A stretch of 64,000 nt of DNA from an uncultured Nitrososphaerota archaeon (GTDB lineage: Archaea; Korarchaeota; Korarchaeia; Korarchaeales; Korarchaeaceae), in contig CAZUBM010000012.1 of the NCBI GenBank assembly GCA_964618805.1, positions 1 through 64,000 of the forward strand, in the 5' to 3' direction. The position numbers were made by a program, and so were the translations under genes. The notes under the pieces were generated by a model. It saw nothing but the letters and a program-made list of their open reading frames with translations. It was not told where the DNA came from and searched no databases. Below are positions 29,443 to 64,000 of this stretch, piece after piece (positions within the stretch are counted from its first letter, which is position 1; every line of letters begins with the position of its first letter).

Positions 29443-30063
29443 ATGGGGCTTGAGGAATCCGTTAGTGTAAGCCTTAAGAGGGAGGGTGTTCTGATAACGC
29501 TAAATACTAGCATAGATGAGGAGATCTCCAAGGCCAATAGTGTTCTGGAAAAGTTTCCAGGAAGCTGGGATCTGGATCCGGATCTAGGTATAGTAACATT
29601 GACCATCACAAGGGAAGATCTTGCTAGAGGCCTCGATTATGAGCCTTTTATAAAAAGGCTCTGTAATATAGCCTACTCACTGGAAGAGCTAGATAGGGCA
29701 ATACACGAGAGGATAAAGGTTGGATTAATTACTAAACTGTTCTCTATAACAGAGAAGCTTAAACCTCCCTCGCTACACGGAGTGCCTCAGAAGACATACG
29801 CGAAGAAAGGACCTCCAGGTTTTTCAATTGAGAGGGTTCAAGAGGGCTTTATGGTCGAAATCAATCTCCTGAGGGCGAAGATATTTAAGTCCCTCAGATA
29901 TGCTAGGATTCTTATCTTCTCAGAGTTCGTTCCCAAAGCCATAAGCCCAGAGGTCTATGAGGACCTTAAGGAGGCGCTGGAAAAATTCGAGGCCGGCATC
30001 TACAAACTATCGGATAAAGAGCTATCTCAGCTTAGGGGCATAAAGCTTATGCTCAAATTCTAG
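29443..30063 (+). CDS. Hypothetical protein
   Basis: 206-aa ORF; upstream GGATAAT-N6-ATTATCC palindrome. Confidence 0.65.
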   Translation: MGLEESVSVSLKREGVLITLNTSIDEEISKANSVLEKFPGSWDLDPDLGIVTLTITREDLARGLDYEPFIKRLCNIAYSLEELDRAIHERIKVGLITKLFSITEKLKPPSLHGVPQKTYAKKGPPGFSIERVQEGFMVEINLLRAKIFKSLRYARILIFSEFVPKAISPEVYEDLKEALEKFEAGIYKLSDKELSQLRGIKLMLKF

Positions 30064-49030: not shown

Positions 49031-49894
49031 GTGCCTTTGGACCCATCTTTGCAGACCATATTCGTTGACCCTGTCAGAAAGGATGGCCTGAAATACGTGG
49101 GGGAATACGTCCGCGGTAGGTGGTGGAACGGATTCCTAGTGGGGAATGGCGTGCGTTACCAAGTTGTAAGAGGAATTCCAGATTTCGTCGGACTTCCTTG
49201 CCCTGAAGGACCTATTTTCAACAAAATAGAGCTTTTCATGCGTCTCTGGGATAACCTATGGGATATCTCAGAGGTAAGGAAGGCGTGTAAGGAGATAGCC
49301 TGCGTTGATGGGCCCCTCCTCGAAGTAGCTGCAGGACCAGGAGGTGGGTTTGTACCGGGGTTGCTTAGGCTGAAGCAGGACCTTATCATACTGATGAGCG
49401 ACAAGGACATGAGGGTTCTAGAGGACTGGAGATGCTTTTCTTCAAGGAAAAATGCAGTGGATAAGGCTGGTCAGATAAGTCTTTCTTTCTCCGCTTTTGA
49501 TGCCGAGAAGATGCCCATTCGTGACGGCAGCTTTTCCGCGGTCACCAGCTTAGGAGGTTTTAACAACATCGACAGCAACCAGATAAACGCTGTGAGGGAG
49601 GCTTTCAGAGTTCTGAGGAGAGGTGGCCTCTTATACCTCCTCGAGGGATGGTTCGAGAGGGAGGAAATATCAAGAACAATGCCTGAACTTGTTCGTTATA
49701 TAGAGAGGTTTTACCCGGGGCTATTAGGAGGCGAGAGCCTAGGATCCATATTAGAGGATGCGGGATTTAGGATGCTAGAAAGGCTTGAGATCTCTTCACC
49801 CTGGCTGAGGTACTATTCCAATCAGGTCCTCCTAATCCTCTCTTTTAACCGCTTGAAGCCGAAATTCTCCCTCATTAAGGCCGTCAAACCTTGA
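49031..49894 (+). CDS. Class I SAM methyltransferase with N-terminal Trm112-like segment
   Basis: YQVVRGIPDF; LEVAAGPGG; FDAEKMP; EAFRVLRRGG. Confidence 0.8.
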   Translation: MPLDPSLQTIFVDPVRKDGLKYVGEYVRGRWWNGFLVGNGVRYQVVRGIPDFVGLPCPEGPIFNKIELFMRLWDNLWDISEVRKACKEIACVDGPLLEVAAGPGGGFVPGLLRLKQDLIILMSDKDMRVLEDWRCFSSRKNAVDKAGQISLSFSAFDAEKMPIRDGSFSAVTSLGGFNNIDSNQINAVREAFRVLRRGGLLYLLEGWFEREEISRTMPELVRYIERFYPGLLGGESLGSILEDAGFRMLERLEISSPWLRYYSNQVLLILSFNRLKPKFSLIKAVKP

Positions 49895-49960
49895 GTTAGC
49901 AGAAATTCGGAGGATTGCTATAATTAAAAGCTTTTAAAAACCGAAATTAAAATAGAGAGC

Positions 49961-50236
49961 ATGACCATGAACTCTTACATTCATAAACTTGGACAATCTT
50001 TAATCAAAAATAAGAAAAAATTTGCACTGTATACTTTAGGTTATTTTGGCATCGGTTATATTGTTGCTACAGGAATGTGGCTTTACTCACATCCTGAATA
50101 TCTTTATTATGGTAAGATATACAAATTAATCAGAGATACTACTATGAACGATCAATTTTGGCTTGCAGTATTACTTTGGCCACTCGCTCTTTACTCTTAT
50201 ATTAAAGTTAAAGGTGGGTTTAAACTATGGGACTGA
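49961..50236 (+). CDS. Small membrane protein (cassette cargo)
   Basis: Two hydrophobic segments; AT-rich. Confidence 0.65.
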   Translation: MTMNSYIHKLGQSLIKNKKKFALYTLGYFGIGYIVATGMWLYSHPEYLYYGKIYKLIRDTTMNDQFWLAVLLWPLALYSYIKVKGGFKLWD

Positions 50237-50482
50237 GAGATATGTCCAAATAAAAAGGAAAATCGCATTATATGCCTTAGGTTATCTTGCAATAGGATAT
50301 GTAGTTACGCTAGGTTTGTATTTTTATCCAATCCTGGTTATTTTAAGCCATGTCCACCAACTGTAGCGCCATACAAGTGTACTGGTGTTATGGATTTAGT
50401 TAGAGATTTAGCAGTTAGACCTGATTTTTGGCTTCAAGTTTTAGTTTGGCCTTTGACACTTATTACTTATTTTGGTACTTAA
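50228..50482 (+). pseudogene. Disrupted paralog of the preceding small membrane protein
   Basis: KIALYALGYLAIGY.. and RDLAVRPDFWLQVLVWPL.. in different frames match KFALYTLGYFGIGY..RDTTMNDQFWLAVLLWPL. Confidence 0.65.
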
Positions 50483-50558
50483 TTCTAACAATTGTAATTG
50501 GCTCACCTCTGAACTCTTCGGAAGCCTTCAGCTTCCTCGCCCTCACTACGTTCGGGTC

Positions 50559-50646
50559 TGCTAAAGGAGGATATATGGCTTCGCTACGCTTCGTCCAAAT
50601 TTGCTCACTTCGTTCGCAAGCTTCACATATCCCCAAAACGTTATCG
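50559..50646 (+). other. attC-like recombination site
   Basis: R'' TGCTAAA, GGATAT/ATATCC arms, R' GTTATCG; 88-bp imperfect palindrome. Confidence 0.55.
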
Positions 50647-50673
50647 GAAATTGCGAGCCCGCTGAAAGGTTAT

Positions 50674-51034
50674 AAAAATAATTGAAATTAAATTATGATA
50701 AAAGTGAGAAGATGAAAAAATTAATCATCGTTGCCATTTTGGTAGTCTTTCTCCAGGTATTCTATTTTCGATTTATTGGAGGAGGGGAACCGAGAAGATA
50801 CCTCCTGAGGAAATAGAGGATGAGAGCCCGCTTTTCAGAACCTACGAGAGGGTAGTAAGACCCCTAAGCCAAAGAGGAGCCTCCGCAGCCATATGGAACG
50901 TGTTTAAAAAAGCGGGTCTTGACAGGAAGAGCGGAAAGATGCACGAGATAAGGATCCACAGCCTAAGAAAGATGAAAACAAGCCTTAACTCCGCGGCTTT
51001 TTCGCTGCAAAGTTATTTAATTTCAATTATTTTT
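50674..51034. repeat. 20-bp perfect inverted repeats enclosing an integrase fragment
   Basis: AAAAATAATTGAAATTAAAT at 50674-50693; reverse complement at 51015-51034. Confidence 0.7.
50774..50971 (+). pseudogene. Tyrosine recombinase fragment (central part)
   Basis: RRGTEKIPPEEIEDESPLFRT..KKAGL..EIRIHSLRK (HxxR box). Confidence 0.82.
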
Positions 51035-51046
51035 CCTGATCCTCCT

Positions 51047-51961
51047 TCAATACATGATTTCATAAATTCTACTCAGATCTATGTACTCTTTCACCTTTTT
51101 TGAAATGTCTTCTATTACTTTTTCCCAAACGTCAAAAGGAACTTTTTGTGAGGGCGTAATAGGATCTAAGGGTGGAAGTTTTGCTAACCCTTGAAAATAG
51201 GGAACAACGCCTACAATAGGTCTTCTAATTTTTTCCTGATAAATTGATTTAACTCTTTTTATTGCAAGTTTTATATATCTTTTCTCTATTCCCATCCATA
51301 AAAGCTCATTCATTGGAAATTTATTTAGCATTACGCCTTTAACCCTTCCCCTTTCTTCTTTCCCTAGGTTAGAAAACATTCCTAGGATTGAATCCAAATT
51401 GTCAGTAACAAGAAGAACCGGAGCGTCAGCAATCTTAGCCGTTTCCATATTGGCTATTTCAAGCAATTCACTGAAAGGCCCAAAACCAAAGAGTTTTGCT
51501 GGTCCTGAGCCTTCGATGCAAATAATCTCAAATTCTTCAGATAAGCTTTCTAAACATTTTCTTGCCGTATCTTTTATTTTTTTATAAATTTTTCCATAAT
51601 TCTCTAATCCAATTATATGTTTTAAAGTCTTTATGATAAAATCCTTTTTTACATCATAGTTTCTTTTAATGCATTCACCTTCTAGAAATATATCGAACTT
51701 GCCATTACCTAAAGGCTTTGGGGTAAAGGGATTCATCCTATAATCTGGCTCTTGACCAGCAGCTATAGCTTGCAGTGCTTGGGCATATCCAAATTCTTTT
51801 CCATTTTTAACATAAGTTACTGGAGTCAAGTTTAATGTTTTGTATGGTGCTACCTTATATCCATCCTCTTTAAAAAGCCTACAAAGCAAGGCAACCACAA
51901 AACTTTTTCCAACACCAGTTCCAAAACCAGTTGCCTGAATCATAATCTTTTTCGCTGCCAC
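51047..51961 (-). CDS. CobQ-like protein (synthetase/ATPase domain only)
   Basis: IMIQATGFGTGVGKS, VAPYK, AQALQA, MNP..KP, IEGSG, ANM; no glutaminase domain. Confidence 0.78.
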   Translation of the reverse strand: MAAKKIMIQATGFGTGVGKSFVVALLCRLFKEDGYKVAPYKTLNLTPVTYVKNGKEFGYAQALQAIAAGQEPDYRMNPFTPKPLGNGKFDIFLEGECIKRNYDVKKDFIIKTLKHIIGLENYGKIYKKIKDTARKCLESLSEEFEIICIEGSGPAKLFGFGPFSELLEIANMETAKIADAPVLLVTDNLDSILGMFSNLGKEERGRVKGVMLNKFPMNELLWMGIEKRYIKLAIKRVKSIYQEKIRRPIVGVVPYFQGLAKLPPLDPITPSQKVPFDVWEKVIEDISKKVKEYIDLSRIYEIMY

Positions 51962-51975
51962 AATTAATCCCTCTT

Positions 51976-52623
51976 TTAACCTCGTTTTCTTCCCATCTTT
52001 ATCGCCCTTATTGCAATGAATGATCCCTCACCATACCCCTCCTTTAGCGGCTCAATCTCCGTAATTTCTGGTAGTTCATGATATAATGTCTGGATAAAAC
52101 TAAAATTCCCAAAACCCGCTTTTTTTAAGTAAAAAGTGACATCGCGTACTGAGTAAAAGTTGGCTATTTTATAGAAAGCGCTGTCATCTTTGTGCTGCTG
52201 ATATTGTCTTCCAAGTTCACTGTTTTTATCGATGAAACCTATGATTAACGAACCCCCAGGTCGTAACACTCTGTATATCTCCTCAAATGCTGCTTCAATA
52301 TCGTCTAAAAAGCAGATGGTAGTGATCATTAACACGAAGTCAAAGGTATTATCACTGAAAGGGAGATTTTCCGCTACAGCATCAATAACCCTTATACCTC
52401 TTCTCTTCGCGATCTCTAGCATTCTCTTTGAAGGATCTACACCCAGTTTAATGCCTAAGGGCGCTGCAAATCTGCCTGTCCCTACACCTATTTCCACTCC
52501 TTGCCCATTCTTGGGCAGTAGTTTCTCTATAGCCCTAAGTTCTGATTCATAGGCGTATTTATTCCTCTCAAACCAATTATCATACCTCATTGGGTATTTT
52601 TCAAACGGGTCGGTTTTTGCCAC
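51976..52623 (-). CDS. Class I SAM-dependent methyltransferase
   Basis: EIGVGTGRFA, AENLPF, RVLRPGG. Confidence 0.9.
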   Translation of the reverse strand: MAKTDPFEKYPMRYDNWFERNKYAYESELRAIEKLLPKNGQGVEIGVGTGRFAAPLGIKLGVDPSKRMLEIAKRRGIRVIDAVAENLPFSDNTFDFVLMITTICFLDDIEAAFEEIYRVLRPGGSLIIGFIDKNSELGRQYQQHKDDSAFYKIANFYSVRDVTFYLKKAGFGNFSFIQTLYHELPEITEIEPLKEGYGEGSFIAIRAIKMGRKRG

Positions 52624-52849
52624 TTTTATTTCACCGAAAACCTCCTGTTATCTTTTGAGTTGAAAGCTTATCCTTCCTTTAAGTCATCCCATTCTTTTGG
52701 TCTCATATCAATATATGAGGTCTACAATTTTTAAATATCCGAAGGCGCAAGGTGGGGCTTCCTAATACATTTTCCCTTAGCAAGGGAAAATTGAGTATAA
52801 CGTTTTACAGTATGCCCATTATCATGAAGTTAAAAAACAAAGCGCCTAA

Positions 52850-53331
52850 AACTACAACATATTTAAGGGAAGACAGGATACTCTTTACCTGCGATCTTTT
52901 TGGCTCCCATCTTGCAACCAGCGATATTTTTGTGACTGATGAATCAACAGTCTATGAGGTAGCCAAGAGATACTATGCAAAGATAATGATGCCTTTCAGA
53001 AGAGTAATTAAGAGTAATTTGGAAAAGATAAAAGATTTGAAGATTGAGATAATAGCACCAAGTCATGGCCCGGTCTATAATAACTCTGATTTCATTCCCA
53101 ATGCCTATAGAGAATGGATTTCGGATGAGGTAAAGAATGAAGTGGTTATACCCTATATATCAATGCATAGAAGTACGAAGAAAAATGGCGGATTACTTCG
53201 CAGGTGCTTTGATTGAGAGGGGCATAACTGTAAAACAGCTCAATTTATCCAAAACCGATATTGGGAAATTGGCGATGGCTTTGGTAGACGCAGCCACGAT
53301 CGTAATCGGCTCACCCACGGTTCTGGTGTAA
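52850..53331 (+). pseudogene. Flavodiiron protein (FprA) fragment, frameshifted
   Basis: [41 protein letters not shown]. Confidence 0.82.
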
Positions 53332-53438
53332 CTGGAATAGAGGCTCTAAGACTAAAAAGGAAAGCCATTATTATAGATTTGAATCCTGTAGCTACATTCA
53401 TCTCAAGAAACATTCTAAACTCCGTATCCATTGTTTAA
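53319..53438 (+). pseudogene. DNA methyltransferase fragment
   Basis: [30 protein letters not shown] (SAM-binding motif I region). Confidence 0.65.
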
Positions 53439-53544
53439 ATAGAAAAACACTTTTAGAAAGCTGAAAGAAAGCATCGCGCAAATGTAAATATATCAAAATC
53501 TGTGTTCTAAGAAATAATACTATACATCAATAGGGGTTACAGAT

Positions 53545-55019
53545 ATGGCTAGGGTGCTATTAACTGCGATAGAACTCTGATGAGCGATTATCACCGTCAT
53601 GAATTTATAGGTTTTGGTACATGTGCGCCTCCAAACGTTATTCCAGACTGGTTTTATAGTTGGCTTTTCTTTCCACCAATTAAAACAAAAGATGGAATTC
53701 CAGTAGCGGCACCCTATGGTCTAAGAAAGATAGAGGCTCAGCTCATAAAAGAGGGATTTGATATTCTAACAGTTGACCCAGATCACTTAGACAAATACAT
53801 TGATGACGCCAAGGTTTTAGGAATTCACGTTATGGATCCGTTCGGACTAGGCCCCGCCTCAAGCACTTTTACTGCCGTGCTTAAAAATGAACCTTTTCTA
53901 GCTAAACATTTCCGTCTGTTAATGGAAAATCCAGCTATTAGGAGAGCTAAAAGGCGGGGTTTTAAAATAATTGTTGGTGGACCGGGCGTCTGGCAGTTCC
54001 AATATAGACTAGATTTCGTGGAAAAATATGGAATAGATTGCATAGTTGACGGGGAGGCAGAAAAGGTTATTGGAAAACTTGTTCAAGCAGCTCTGGAAGG
54101 TGAGGAACTGCCTAAATATTATGAGGTAGGCCCGAAGGAAACTCCAGGCTTAGACGAGATACCCGACATTACGGCTCCGTCCATAAATGGTCTGATTGAG
54201 ATTGGCCGAGGATGCCCGCGGGGATGCAAATATTGCAGCGTAACTTTGAGGCCGTTACGCTGGTATCCGTACGAGAAAATAATGCGGGAGATAAGCGTAA
54301 ACATGGAAAGCGGTTATACTACTGGTGCATGTCTCCATGCGGAGGATGTTATGCTTTATGGCTCACCAAATACCATACCAAAAGATGAGAAACTGCTTAA
54401 GCTGCATGAATTGGTCGTTAAAAAATGTGAACGAATAGGATGGAGCCACTGTTCCCTAGCACCTGTAGCTGCAAAACCAAAGCTTTTCGCAGCCGTTGCA
54501 GAGATAATTAAGCAGAAGCAGCCATGGTGGGGTGCTGAAATCGGTATAGAGACAGGTTCGCCTGAACTCGCCAAAAAGATTATGCCTGCGAAGGCTCATC
54601 CATTCAAGCCTGAAGAATGGCCAGAAGTTGTGCGTATAGGGATGGGATTAATGCATGATCACGGCTTGGTTCCAGCATGCACGTTAATTGTAGGGGTTCC
54701 CGGGGAAACGGAGGATGATCTCATAAAAACAATGGAACTTGTTGATGATCTAAAGGAGATAAAAAGCCTCATAGTTCCACTTTACTTCGTGCCTATGGGG
54801 AGAATGAAAAATGAGGATTGGTTTAAATGCGAAGAGATAGCTGGGCTTTATCGAGAACTATTAACGAAATGTCTAAAGCATGATATACATTGGGTTTACT
54901 CGCTTATAGACGACTCTTTTGTAGGCAGATGGTACAAACCTTTCATAACTTCGCTCTACAAACTATTCGTCAAAATAATTGAATACAAATGTAAAAGAGC
55001 TGGTATTCCCACTAGGTGA
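53545..55019 (+). CDS. B12-binding-like/radical SAM protein (1-nt frameshift near 53567; in-frame ATG 53580)
   Basis: MARVLLTA-DRTLMSDY split by frameshift; APYGLRKIEA; GCPRGCKYC; GIETGS. Confidence 0.85.
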
Positions 55020-55131
55020 ATGCTATGCAAATTGACGAGATCGAAAATACCTTATTCTCAATAATCGTAAATCCCATTTTAAGAAGAGCTATAGGATTTC
55101 TAGAATTAATGCTAGATCCTTGGAGTTCTAC

Positions 55132-55325
55132 ATGAGCAGGGAGGACAGGATCTTAGAGAAGTTAAGGGAATTGAGGAGGGAAATAATCCGCTTGCTGGCC
55201 AAAGGGCCCGTACTTGCGAAGTCAGATAAGGAGGAAGCTTCCGTTGAAATCCCTTCTCAGGTTCCAGATTTTGTTAGAGAGAACCTTGGGCTGAGATAAT
55301 TTTGAAGAAAGGTGAGAAAAGATGA
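55132..55325 (+). pseudogene. Small element-associated ORF, frameshifted near the C-terminus
   Basis: MSREDRILEKLRELRRE..VPDFVREN|PWAEIILKKGEKR. Confidence 0.55.
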
Positions 55326-55582
55326 GAGGGGACGGTAGATTGGTTCTAGTTCGCTACTATGATCATCTTCTCTTCAGGAACGTAAGAAAGGGCGAACTAT
55401 CTCCAGTAGTCAGGGAAACTGTTGGTTGGCTGGAGGAAGAGAACGACCTTTACATAAAGCTTATCTGGGATAGGAGCGTAATCGAGCTTCCAAATGAGAG
55501 GAAGCAGGACAGGATCTCAGGAATGATAATCCTGAAGCCCCTCATCCTTGAGGTGATAGAGGTCAAACTGGTATCATCTTAG
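55322..55582 (+). CDS. Hypothetical protein adjacent to integrase remnant
   Basis: RYYDHLLFRN..VRETVGWL; ATGA overlap with upstream remnant. Confidence 0.65.
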   Translation: MRGDGRLVLVRYYDHLLFRNVRKGELSPVVRETVGWLEEENDLYIKLIWDRSVIELPNERKQDRISGMIILKPLILEVIEVKLVSS

Positions 55583-55584
55583 CC

Positions 55585-55900
55585 TTCTTCAGGACTCAGA
55601 TGGCTGCTTTAGGAGTTCCTTCAGATTGTATCGAATATATTATGAGTTACAAGCTTAGCACATGCCATGATGTTCGGATGAAAGGAATCGAGTTCCTTCC
55701 CTCCATCTATGCAGCGGCAAACCTAAAGATATTCCAGAAGCAAAAGATAACTCTTGCAGACATCCTTAAGGAGATAATAAGGTCAAGAGGGAAGATCCTT
55801 CAAAATACCTTAAAGAGCAGATTATGGCTGGAAGGATCGTCCTTTCCAAGAAGGAGAGACGGAGATCTATGCTAGGGGAATATAGGAAATGCTACGAAGG
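55585..55900 (+). pseudogene. Tyrosine integrase C-terminal remnant
   Basis: FFRTQMAALGV..IEYIMSYKLSTCHD..GIEFL..IYAAA; expected GH and catalytic Y are degenerate. Confidence 0.75.
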
Positions 55901-61741: not shown

Positions 61742-64000
61742 TCAAGAAATTAAAGAATATTTAGCGAGCCCGCCAATTGTGATTAACATATTCGAGGTAT
61801 GAGAAGTTTGTGCAAGCAATTTTGGGCGAGTAAAACAAACTGCATAACCCTTGTTATTTTTAGTGGTTTTAAGCTCTCTAAATGCTTGATAGTATTCACT
61901 CAATACTAACTCGGCAGGCTTTCCTCGGATGGTTTCGTCCTTGCTTTCGGGAAGAGTTATGTAAGAATAGCCAAAAGGCAGGAAGCCAACAATCCACTCC
62001 CTTTCGGCGATCGAGCGGAAAACGGCTTCATAAATTCTGGCCTGTTCTTCCAAATCCAGCACTACGCTTGCATCTTCCTCAAAGAAGGCTGAAATATAGG
62101 GGGTTGATTGGCACCATTATTGATGCTTGGATAGGCAAACTGGGTGATTACAATGGGCTTTTTGAATTCCTCATACATCCACTTTACCTCTTTGTCAAAG
62201 TAGGAATCGAAAGCCATTTTCAACTCTTCTACGCTTGCGTCCTCAGATACACCAAGATCCTTCCAGACAGAAACGCCTATGAAATCCACTAACTCATAGT
62301 GAGTGTAACCCGTGGTGGGGCCATCAACGATCAGGTACCCACTGAATAGATTACGCATCTCCTGAATGATGCTACGCATGTAATCATCGACTTTCTTCCT
62401 CAGATCCGGATCATCGTATTGAAAGAGCTGAACTCCGTGAAGTTGCAGCGCATCCACTCCTAAGTCCTCTGCAAGTTTAGCGTGGTAAAGATAAAACTTC
62501 TTGGCCTCTTGGTACCATTGGTCGTACCATTCCTCAGAATGAGGAGCCCAGAAAGACATGCCGGCGATTGGACTTTCATCCATGAGTAGGGATAAATATA
62601 CCTTCTTTCCTTTAGATTGTAGTTCTTGAACCACCGCTTTCAATTCCTTTGCTGGCATGGAGCTGACAAAAACCCGGACACTTCGAGTGGAGAGTTTCGG
62701 TACAGGTTCTGCTTTTTCCCATCCCACCCGTGTGCCAATGCAACCCAGTCGGCATTGATATCATCGAGACGATCAAGACTAGCACTAATAAGCGGGGTAA
62801 TACTTGGCCACCAGAAGTCGCTGAAGAAAATTCCGTTAATGAACAGATCTCTCGGTTTAATCTCAACGACTTGAAACTCATAAGGTGGTGGATAGTCCCC
62901 CTCTGGGTACCATCTCCATGCCTGAACTTCATCCTCGACGACTAGGTCGCTCTCAGAGATTACCACGGTTCTAAATTCTTGCAAATCATCTAGGTGCTCG
63001 TGTCCCATACCTCCTAATCCACGAACATACTTGTAGTTCCAGGTGCCAGGACCAGCGAAGTAGGTAAAGGTCCATCGATTATCAGATATTTTATCCATGG
63101 GCAAGATCGGCCCTCCAACATCGATGAAAATAGGTTCATTGGGTGGAGTATTAGCTGGAACCCTAACATTCAGAGTCAGCATTACCTCACAGCTAACGCT
63201 CCAAGTCTCAATCTTATCATCCCTTATTTCATCAGAACTCCCCACCACAAAACTTCTTATCACAGCCTCTCCAGTTAAAGAGCGTTCTTGGTTTAACCCG
63301 AGAGTGTAAATGTATTCTACATAGGTCCCTTCGTACAGCTCAACGGTGGCTGAAATTTGTTTTCAGAAATGCGCTCCATATTAACCCACCTGGCCGGATC
63401 TGGAGCAAGGTTATTCAACAACCAGCATATTGAACCTAGCTGATAGACATTTCCTGAAATCTTGACAATTGCGTTTTTTTGGCGTTCGTTTTGGAACAAT
63501 AACGTTAAAGGTAACGTTCACCCGGCGCGCTGGCTCTAATCTAAAGTTGATGACTGCAGTCTCCCTAGGTTTTACTTCCACTACCTTTGAGAATGGCTTG
63601 TAATCGCCCAGCGTAGTGACTACCGTTACTCGTTGTTTTCCTACTGGAACTCCTTCAAAAACGAATTTTCCTTCATGATCGGTTCCCAAGTGTACTCCAG
63701 CTATTGAGACCGTGGCATCAATAAGAGGGGCTCCTGTCTTGTTATCTCGAACAGTTCCAATGACGGTTCCTTTTAAGGGTGAAGATGAAATACCTCCAAC
63801 AGACCACCCAGTCCTCTACGAATCTAGTAGAAGGGGAAACTAATAGATATCTGAAATTGATTTCGGTATTTTCGTCAAAGCTTTCGCGGGAGACTTCCCA
63901 TTCTTTCCGGCCCTTGCAACCTAGCTCATGAGTATATCTAAGCAGACTTCCCTCCAATAAATCATTGACCTGAGCTGACCAAGTATTATCATCTTTAGCT
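61742..64000 (-). pseudogene. Multiply frameshifted secreted protein: carboxypeptidase-regulatory/CBM20-like domains plus GH113-like TIM barrel
   Basis: Successive frames TDHEGKFVFEGVPVG, NVRVPANTPPNEPI, KPIVITQFAYPS, LDLEEQARIYEAVF, TIRGKPAE. Confidence 0.68.
61781..61859 (-). other. attC-like site
   Basis: Minus strand AAATAAC..GGTTATG.AGTTTGT..ACAAACT..CATACC..GTTAATC; at the 3' end of a gene; shares TCGYCCAAA core with the 50.6-kb site. Confidence 0.55.

Follow-up and report, generated by a model that had tools for sequence, protein, structure and literature searches.

A probable integron-type gene cassette of a variant site family, with the stub of a second, in an archaeal chromosome

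Introduction

Can a gene cassette of the integron type be recognized in an archaeal chromosome outside of an integron, and how might it have been placed there? The question is raised by positions 49895-50652 of a DNA stretch of 64,000 nucleotides, referred to here as the window (contig CAZUBM010000012.1, positions 1 to 64,000, assembly GCA_964618805.1, from an uncultured archaeon of the Korarchaeaceae). A sequence-only reading had proposed that a cassette begins right after the stop codon of a methyltransferase gene and ends with an attC site. It was thought to be inserted at a secondary GTT site or to be the remnant of an attC cluster that has no integron integrase (CALIN). Canonical attC sites have the order R''-L''...L'-R', with RYYYAAC and GTTRRRY as outer boxes.

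Archaeal integron cassettes were first reported in 2022, mostly from short contigs of metagenome-assembled genomes (MAGs); in this survey of archaeal integrons and CALINs, singleton attC sites were excluded (Ghaly et al., 2022, Sci Adv, PMC9668308). Our best reading of the present locus is an integron-type cassette of a variant site family which, together with the stub of a second cassette, is stranded in an archaeal integrated element. The family may have a Xer-like recombinase of its own.

Results

The borders of the cassette

A direct check of the sequence found every element of the sequence-only reading in place (Table 1). GTTAGCAGAAATT at 49895-49907 abuts the TGA of the methyltransferase gene, TCTGCTAAA is located at 50557-50565 and GTTATCGGAAATT at 50640-50652. 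Past the hairpin site the predicted start of an open reading frame (ORF), MKKLIIVAIL.., is present at 50712. The right box at 50640 starts with GTT, as an attC site should, and so does the sequence at 49895. When both strands of the window were scanned, the 13-mer GTTANNNGAAATT had two matches only, at 49895 and 50640 on the same strand. The expected count was 0.19 (shuffle mean), and two matches were reached by 1 of 100 shuffles.

Table 1. Features of the cassette locus and related features of the same genome. Positions refer to the window unless a contig is named; R1 and R2 are the covariance models described in the text.
Feature	Position	Strand	Description
Methyltransferase ORF	49031-49894		287 aa; Methyltransf_11, E 2e-9; TGA stop at 49892-49894
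Left border G/TTAGCAGAAATT	49895-49907	+	5' end of cassette A; carries the family R' consensus GTTAnnnGAAAT
Cassette A	49896-50640	+	begins at the TT past the left G, ends on the G of the right-hand GTT; GC 0.36
ORF1	49961-50236	+	91 aa; no Pfam family
ORF2	50238-50482	+	tandem paralogue of ORF1; one frameshift near 50325-50335 beside a T run
R''	50557-50565		TCTGCTAA; C of AAC missing
attC-type site	50559-50646	+	88 nt; R1 99.2 bits, R2 85 bits; stem covariation
L stem	50569-50577		paired with 50624-50632
Site interior			loop with CGTCCAAATT and AGCTTC; 7-nt spacer CCAAAAC; R' from G 50640
Cassette B, 5' stub	50641-50777	+	starts TTATCGGAAAT; cut off at ~50778
Integrase fragment	50778-50971	+	codons ~259-323 of the island's tyrosine integrase; not IntI; truncates cassette B
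Metallo-beta-lactamase-fold gene, 3' remnant	51013-51055	-	..IEGGSGKIIEIK, then stop
Integrase, C-terminal rest	55585-55674	+	same pseudogene, 81% identical; catalytic Tyr position is Cys
Second decayed family site	61773-61864	-	at the 3' end of a frameshifted GH113-like gene; 11 kb off
Lone complete cassette, same genome	G000:C11:37669-38665 (L270)		starts GTTAGGCGAAATT

The hairpin site belongs to a family of Archaea and Bacteria

In a DNA search of 40 neighbouring genomes the part 50561-50654 was matched in six, at 72-83% identity. The kinship of these six ranged from the same genus to the same domain, and one genome held four copies. From seven aligned copies, with a conserved 10-bp stem and compensatory changes, a covariance model was built (R1); a second model, R2, is broader. 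The family layout is TCnnnTAAC, a 9-bp stem, CCCAAATT, AACTTC, the return arm, a 7-nt spacer and AC/GTTAnnnGAAAT (slashes mark borders within a sequence).

A strict pattern derived from the alignment matched at least 123 stretches in a collection of species genomes. Among the 80 loci listed, 32 had archaeal titles (including Methanophagales, Methanosarcinales, Bathyarchaeota, Altarchaeum, Pacearchaeota, Hadarchaeota, Promethearchaeota) and 48 bacterial ones (including Spirochaetes, Dehalococcoidia, Ignavibacteria, Thermodesulfobacteria, Thermotogae; three records were not labelled MAG). In the 77 loci scanned, R1 gave 133 matches at E <= 0.01, often several per locus on one strand. Arrays of same-strand sites, located 3' of ORFs, are formed by the family in many anaerobic Bacteria and Archaea, relatives included: eight of nine R1 matches on a 17-kb contig (G036:C15) were on the minus strand, three on another contig (G029:C21) were on the plus strand, and on G042:C9 28/28 sites share one strand.

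In 118 aligned sites, 9/9 pairs of the inner stem had compensatory changes and 94.1% of the cells pair. The observed covariation score was reached by 0/500 shuffles, an outcome favoured by the fact that the alignment had been fitted to the model. In a logo made from 106-111 sites and their flanks, conservation extends from 8 nt left of the C of AAC to 11 nt beyond the G of GTT; when sites are anchored on GTT, the G, T and T amount to 2.0 bits each. The two boxes can form a 9-bp outer stem of which the middle three bases are variable. The spacers are asymmetric, 3-4 nt vs 7 nt.

Contigs of at least 85% likeness were drawn from four metagenome runs. The summed depth over the bin of the site was far above that of its neighbours, 407 vs 16 in the possible source run and 1898 vs ~4-7 in a sediment run, figures which do not represent a copy number. 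Loose contig ends diverge near 50565 and 50651-50655, where conservation of the family stops. Hence the core of the site is present on many other contigs of the community. In run X4 the methyltransferase gene was covered to 49897, as was the integrase fragment, and 49957-50478 was not. As no X4 contig bridges this gap, it is not evidence of an empty site.

Cassette starts complement their own sites

If cassettes travel in circular form and the cut is between G and TT (G/TT), one expects a left box to be complementary, in its variable bases, to the start of the cassette it belongs to and not to the bases past the site. This was examined in 25 consecutive same-strand site pairs which were at most 3.5 kb apart; sites without recognizable AAC or GTT anchor were dropped. 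The variable triplet complemented the own start at 3/3 positions in 12 of the 25 pairs, and the next start in a single one. In a direct contest of own vs next start there were 16 wins, 2 losses and 7 ties. When five variable positions were considered, the own start agreed 5/5 in 7/25 pairs and the next start in none (permutation mean 1.7, P 0.0003). Such own-start complementarity is the hallmark of cassettes which are circular and cross over at G/TT; no MITE (miniature inverted-repeat transposable element), REP (repetitive extragenic palindrome) or terminator model predicts it.

The window cassette obeys this rule of its family. The 9-mer at the left border, GTTAGCAGA, complements R'', TCTGCTAA, at 8/9 positions and at 5/5 variable ones. 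At the right border the 9-mer complements R'' at 6/9 positions and at 3/5 variable ones. The left box had been described as complementary except for its last base. The complementarity stands, and the mismatch is more plausibly due to loss of one nucleotide, the C of TAAC, than to a change of C to A.

These data bear on the view that the hairpin is not a recombination site at all, whether a palindrome and a direct repeat arisen by chance, a MITE or REP flanked by target-site duplications, or the hairpin of a terminator. For this one may cite that its fold energy is unexceptional, that by BLAST it is single-copy in its own genome, and that it has no match in Rfam. Yet homologous sites occur in the many genome stretches listed above and in arrays, and their complements point 0.3-3 kb upstream, for which MITE, REP and terminator models offer no explanation. 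The sequence-only reading had named a MITE or REP family with target-site duplications as its own refutation; this did not materialize, the 13-mers being box sequences conserved throughout the family, not duplications. Five family sites in 2.18 Mb of host genome do not suit a MITE or REP family either. The view is already largely refuted and we consider it very improbable.

Both borders of the cassette block

The right G is followed by the consensus TTAnnnGAAAT. Since TTATCGGAAAT past this G corresponds to the cassette-start consensus of the family, a second, truncated cassette follows, and its stub contains an A/T-rich stretch and the ORF start mentioned above. For this reason we favour the CALIN remnant over a lone insertion, the two options left by the sequence-only reading. 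The idea of a GTT site survives in so far as it agrees with the left junction, which is not att-like: upstream of 49895 there was no model match, no fold at the 3' end of the methyltransferase gene and no attI-like element, and the bases preceding the left G (..CCTTGA) differ from the conserved ..AC which precedes GTT in the family. With nothing att-like before 49895, the cassette block is joined at exactly G/TT to a non-att place. We also weighed whether 49843-49901, at the 3' end of the methyltransferase gene, might be a short attC, an idea that was discarded for lack of a fold (z 0.36 and 1.16) and of a model match.

By formal definitions the locus is not a CALIN (at least two attC sites less than 4 kb apart), the next family site being 11 kb off and on the opposite strand. 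It has the features of a SALIN, i.e. one attC site with a coding sequence and no integrase or other att site nearby, a definition which formally is based on IntegronFinder.

Taken together, anatomy, border logic, the arrays of the family and the G/TT cassette rule support the integron-type reading. We consider it likely, with a probability of about 0.75, that 49896-50640 is a complete integron-type cassette which, as a block with the stub, was joined at a non-att G/TT inside a decayed integrated element. The designation integron-type is supported by anatomy and border logic; with the broken AAC, the missing IntI and no bulged bases seen, strict IntI membership is uncertain.

Points that weigh against the cassette

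Several observations count against this conclusion. First, R'' is broken: the window has TAA then AGG vs TAACAGG in relatives, so that an intact AAC is not present. TCTGCTAA aligns with the family TCnnnTAA once a one-base gap is allowed. Second, no bulged base is seen in the inner stem; an extra column was filled in 1 of the 118 aligned sites. Third, the integrated 100-nt stretch folded no better than shuffled sequences (z 0.06 for the bottom strand, 0.48 for the top strand), hence energy alone cannot carry the claim of a cassette. The 88-bp 'imperfect palindrome' of the sequence-only reading was therefore overstated; only its inner stem of 9-10 bp is solid. When the cassette end was joined to the start in silico, only this circle junction formed an outer stem, of 8 bp. 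Its bottom-strand fold was -12.6 vs -8.6 kcal/mol, and even so reached a z of -1.6 only. Fourth, no family of Rfam 15 matched the site, at gathering thresholds or at E <= 10. Fifth, R1 and R2 were built from the site family including the window copy, and the scores of the window site are partly circular. Sixth, contigs of the four metagenome runs contained no join matching an excision or a circle. Lastly, no empty site was found in relatives: the methyltransferase gene has no counterpart in 4/4 same-genus genomes (71-90% complete), which left nothing to compare.

The host genome contains no integron integrase

The absence of IntI from the window, as claimed before, was confirmed and extends to the genome, which is 93.7% complete. 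There the best match of the IntI model TIGR02249 scored 91.6 bits (cut-off 265) and was a Xer gene with an intein-like insert. With three IntIs from other genomes as tblastn queries this intein-bearing Xer was the sole match in the host genome. The TIGR02249 cut-off was exceeded in none of five relatives. The host genome has no relative closer than ~30% of the array-head recombinase described below, and neither window nor host genome has an attI-like element (best nhmmer E 0.36, on contig C11). As the genome has no such recombinase and AAC is broken, the cassettes are argued to be fossils. The site is probably a fossil and the cassette most likely immobile now.

The Xer-type gene of the host (G000:C4:44696-46804) is a 702-aa open frame with an intein-like insert of ~400 aa directly after the catalytic motif HTLRH. 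The insert begins with C and ends with HN, then S.

R2 found five family sites in the host genome, four with degenerate outer boxes. The decayed sites at window 61773-61864 (-; R1 26.1 bits, E 3e-5; R2 36.5 bits), G000:C18:40672-40761 (-) and G000:C50:2267-2359 (-) have intact inner stems and loop motifs; one of these three has a metallo-beta-lactamase-fold gene on one side and a DtxR/FeoA-FeoB cluster on the other. The lone cassette on contig C11 carries a secreted-looking, 283-aa metallo-beta-lactamase-fold gene, and the GCCTAAC of its site is complementary to its own start. Its right junction, GTTCAGCG.., is non-consensus, as expected for a single cassette in non-cassette DNA.

A decayed element surrounds the cassette

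The stretch of ~28-56 kb looks like a decayed integrated element. It encodes an Orc1/Cdc6-like protein, two AbiEii toxins, a nucleotidyltransferase, a HerA/FtsK-like ATPase and two giant secreted proteins (1275 and 784 aa) which contain PKD, transglutaminase and Cys-rich, Thr-rich repeats. ARAGORN placed a tRNA-Ile gene at 29600-29689. Archaeal core genes (proteasome beta, FttA/aCPSF1, LSm and SepF) are located 5-9 kb away on the same contig. Given this long contig and such neighbours, mis-binning is not an issue.

The integrase fragment which cuts off cassette B is 95% identical to an intact 348-aa integrase (PF00589) from a genome of the same genus (L004), where the gene is situated just upstream of the proteasome beta gene. 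In the window the N-terminal 258 codons of the pseudogene are gone and the two remaining pieces are parted by a 4.6-kb insertion, 50972-55584. The best NCBIfam score of the island integrase was 78 bits, with a XerA model. Within the insertion are genes for a CbiA-like protein, a second methyltransferase and a radical-SAM protein, as well as an ODP fragment.

The integrase fragment is flanked by a perfect 20-nt inverted repeat (50674-50693 and 51015-51034). Its right copy corresponds to the coding sequence at the 3' end of a metallo-beta-lactamase-fold cassette gene (..GKIIEIK, then stop) which is also found on contigs C11, C18 and C50; on C11 and C18 the same type of gene is followed by a family site. 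The repeat was considered as the ends of a mobile element and is better explained by two copies of the 3' end of this gene. In a 151-nt contig of run X3, 50643 and 51013 are linked through 25 other letters.

The cassette may have been joined to the methyltransferase gene in an earlier host, both arriving here as one block by way of the element integrase or by homologous recombination; the site would then have had no activity in the present host. The integrated element with its split integrase would suit such an arrival, as would the GC of the methyltransferase gene, 0.49 vs 0.425 for the genome, its absence from the same-genus genomes, and the four other decayed or lone family sites of the genome. 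Block arrival merely shifts the junction to the earlier host; the exact G/TT join still needs a site-specific event. It is a rather unlikely account, and one which is compatible with our reading of a stranded integron-type cassette rather than opposed to it.

Cargo of the cassette

The 'AT-rich membrane-protein ORFs' of the sequence-only reading turned out to be two tandem paralogues of which the second is frameshifted. ORF2 was 37% and 46% identical to ORF1 in its two frames, and a direct repeat, D1, agrees. Two hydrophobic segments of ORF1 were read by eye. Both ORFs read toward the site. Among 5.8 billion protein clusters ORF1 had four relatives, all unnamed metagenome proteins of 47-80% identity. 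GC was ~0.49-0.51 in the methyltransferase gene, 0.32-0.33 at 49850-50299 and 0.33 in the cassette cargo. The low GC of the cargo and the few relatives of ORF1 counted toward a foreign origin of the cassette. A TTTTAAAA stretch 22-30 nt upstream of ORF1 may serve as an archaeal TATA box.

Xer-like recombinases and an attI-like element at array heads

Which enzyme handles the sites of this family? At 19 distinct places the contig bearing a family site also had a recombinase gene or fragment no more than 10 kb from it. These were gathered by three routes: six loci from the genome collection, seven contigs of the genomes G041, G042 and G044, and six metagenome loci obtained with a recombinase query. 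All 19 recombinases belong to a single Xer-like clade, its members being 42-70% identical. The gene is co-oriented with the sites and upstream of them in 18/19 places, and divergent in the remaining one. The best-scoring model is NF040815 (XerA), and the proteins remain below the IntI cut-off. The insertions shown by the Argoarchaeum IntI in the same alignment are missing, and some members have an extra N-terminal domain. The plainest example is the array of G042:C9 (455958-486621) mentioned above, from a Spirochaetia genome, with its 28/28 sites on one strand over 31 kb (L267:1959 to L268:12622). A 357-aa recombinase (L268:13081-14154, -) ends 465 nt before the first site, and housekeeping-like genes are located beyond it.

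Further places with array heads were L050, L077, L092, L101, L186, L195, L199, L263-L266 and L269. In Ca. Argoarchaeum four arrays keep just the last 55-91 codons of the recombinase gene.

Directly 3' of the recombinase gene is a conserved element of ~100 nt, which was aligned from 11 loci (alignment A6) of Thermodesulfobacterium, Dehalococcoidia, Argoarchaeum, Alkalispirochaeta and metagenomes. It consists of two ATATACGAAC..GTTCGnATAT palindromes around CCAAATTGG and ends with GA/GTTAYACGCAAT; this attI-like element is located, for example, at L050:5116-5253 (-), L100:8906-9037 (-) and L264:4475-4625 (+). A profile of the element matched 20/78 family loci at 21 places. At 19/21 places a family site is downstream on the same strand; at one it is upstream.

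Several points speak against a Xer-like partner, among them that the 19 places were collected by different routes. A recombinase or its 3' fragment ends 18-54 nt upstream of the element at 6/21 places only. Metagenome loci with the recombinase had family sites in 4/79 (R1) or 6/79 (R2) cases, many contigs being short, and most family arrays show no intact recombinase. At L186 family sites are present on both sides of the Xer-like gene, the upstream one at 63 nt, as for cargo. The window contains the cassette part alone, not the succession of recombinase, attI-like element and cassettes. That the window cassette is a stray from a second, IntI-independent integron-like lineage which spans Bacteria and Archaea and has its own Xer-like recombinase without the IntI-specific (I2) insertion, an attI-like element ending in G/TTA and sites free of bulged bases is put forward as a possibility that we hold to be doubtful. 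A literature search found no paper on attC-type arrays with a Xer-like recombinase at the head, which is no proof that none exists.

The opposite view is that of an ordinary IntI-type attC cassette, a SALIN placed in trans at a genomic attG/GWT site, the Xer-like genes being cargo or hitch-hikers. IntI (TIGR02249) was above cut-off in three of five family-holding genomes, one of them archaeal (Ca. Argoarchaeum ethanivorans), and the situation at L186 is what cargo would look like. In published work, attC clusters are described from 75 archaeal MAGs and IntI1 recombined 8/9 archaeal attC sites (Ghaly et al., 2022); IntI insertions occurred at genomic GWT sites and such lone cassettes were named SALIN (Loot et al., bioRxiv 10.1101/2022.09.11.507474). 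Against this, none of the three IntI genes adjoins a family site (R2 gave 0 matches at E <= 0.05, R1 16.7 and 15.4 bits). A filter for IntI-like ORFs in the 80 family loci listed passed four only, which were Xer-like and below the IntI cut-off. The family motifs are absent from the readable part of the supplement of Ghaly et al. (2022), primer list included. Furthermore, no bulged bases are seen in the L stem, and the right border joins cassette to cassette and is not of the attG kind. An ordinary IntI cassette is rather unlikely by our estimate.

Discussion

A proposed mechanism

We envisage the following series of events for the integron-type cassette. By border logic, a family cassette would leave its array as a circle. 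A tyrosine recombinase would recombine the folded site and cut between G and TT of the right box; because of such a cut, the first bases of each integrated cassette are the far half of its own right box. Through the G/TT cut at least two cassettes, as one block, would then have become joined to the non-att place right after the methyltransferase stop. The junction could stem from the insertion of a multi-cassette circle or from a site-specific deletion; either would do. Cassette B would have been truncated later, via a rearrangement with the integrase pseudogene of the element itself. For the enzyme which made the junction we lean slightly toward the clade of co-oriented Xer-like recombinases without the IntI-specific insertion. 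That a canonical IntI did so, in a donor or in trans, is conceivable but less expected.

Implications

A cassette on a long contig beside archaeal core genes is firm evidence that cassettes enter archaeal chromosomes, outside integrons. The site family occurs in numerous lineages of Bacteria and Archaea that inhabit anoxic sediments and vents, and therefore marks a route of gene flow between the domains. Its arrays are often headed by a recombinase which lacks the domain thought to define integron integrases, and by an attachment site of their own. If the lead is true, integron finders would file the arrays with a Xer-like head as integrase-less CALINs. Should the Xer-like enzyme move cassettes, part of the 'integrase-less' attC clusters would be complete elements of another kind, and the evolutionary step from Xer-like enzymes to IntI would become testable at the bench. 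The Xer-headed system could be related to the Xer-like ancestor from which integron integrases descend, or serve as a living model of it.

Comparison with known systems

The closest parallels are the archaeal arrays of Ghaly et al. (2022; PMC9668308). Common features are same-strand arrays of short ORFs with folded attC-type sites behind them; they occur in MAGs of archaea belonging to methane-cycling and sediment lineages, mostly without IntI nearby. Overlap with bacterial attC sites and a cargo mostly of unknown function, often membrane or secreted proteins, are shared as well. Unlike the loci of that survey, the present one consists of one full cassette and a stub, on a long contig with archaeal core genes.

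The SALIN/attG route, as described by Loot et al. (bioRxiv 10.1101/2022.09.11.507474), resembles the window in that an attC cassette is found outside an integron in an integrase-less genome, with a left junction at a G/TT-type genomic place without att structure. Those SALINs concern Bacteria and IntI1 and their right junction is genomic, whereas the present host is an archaeon, with a cassette-to-cassette junction on the right. The lone C11 cassette fits the SALIN pattern better than the window cassette does.

Canonical attC sites rely on extrahelical bases, according to Escudero et al. (2016; PMC4792948). Likenesses to these sites are two nested stems, a variable loop, AAC and GTT outer ends, a length of 83-123 nt with flanks and a crossover left of the variable part of the right box. 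In the family, by contrast, no bulge is seen in the inner stem and the asymmetry is located in the spacers, 3-4 vs 7 nt. The outer stem has 9 bp and is followed by three more conserved, unpaired bases (GTTAnnnGAAAT), and the loop contains the conserved CCCAAATT and AACTTC, again unlike canonical attC.

What remains is the relation to Xer. Xer recombinases comprise XerC/D and the archaeal XerA, and there are elements which exploit Xer, e.g. through the hairpin-mimic attP of the CTX phage. No Xer with an I2-like domain is known according to Escudero et al. (2016; PMC4792948). The recombinases adjoining our arrays are like Xer in that they score best with the XerA model NF040815 and are without the insertions of the Argoarchaeum IntI. 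Unlike Xer, they are not the dimer-resolution enzyme of the host; their place is at the head of arrays, with an attI-like element directly after them.

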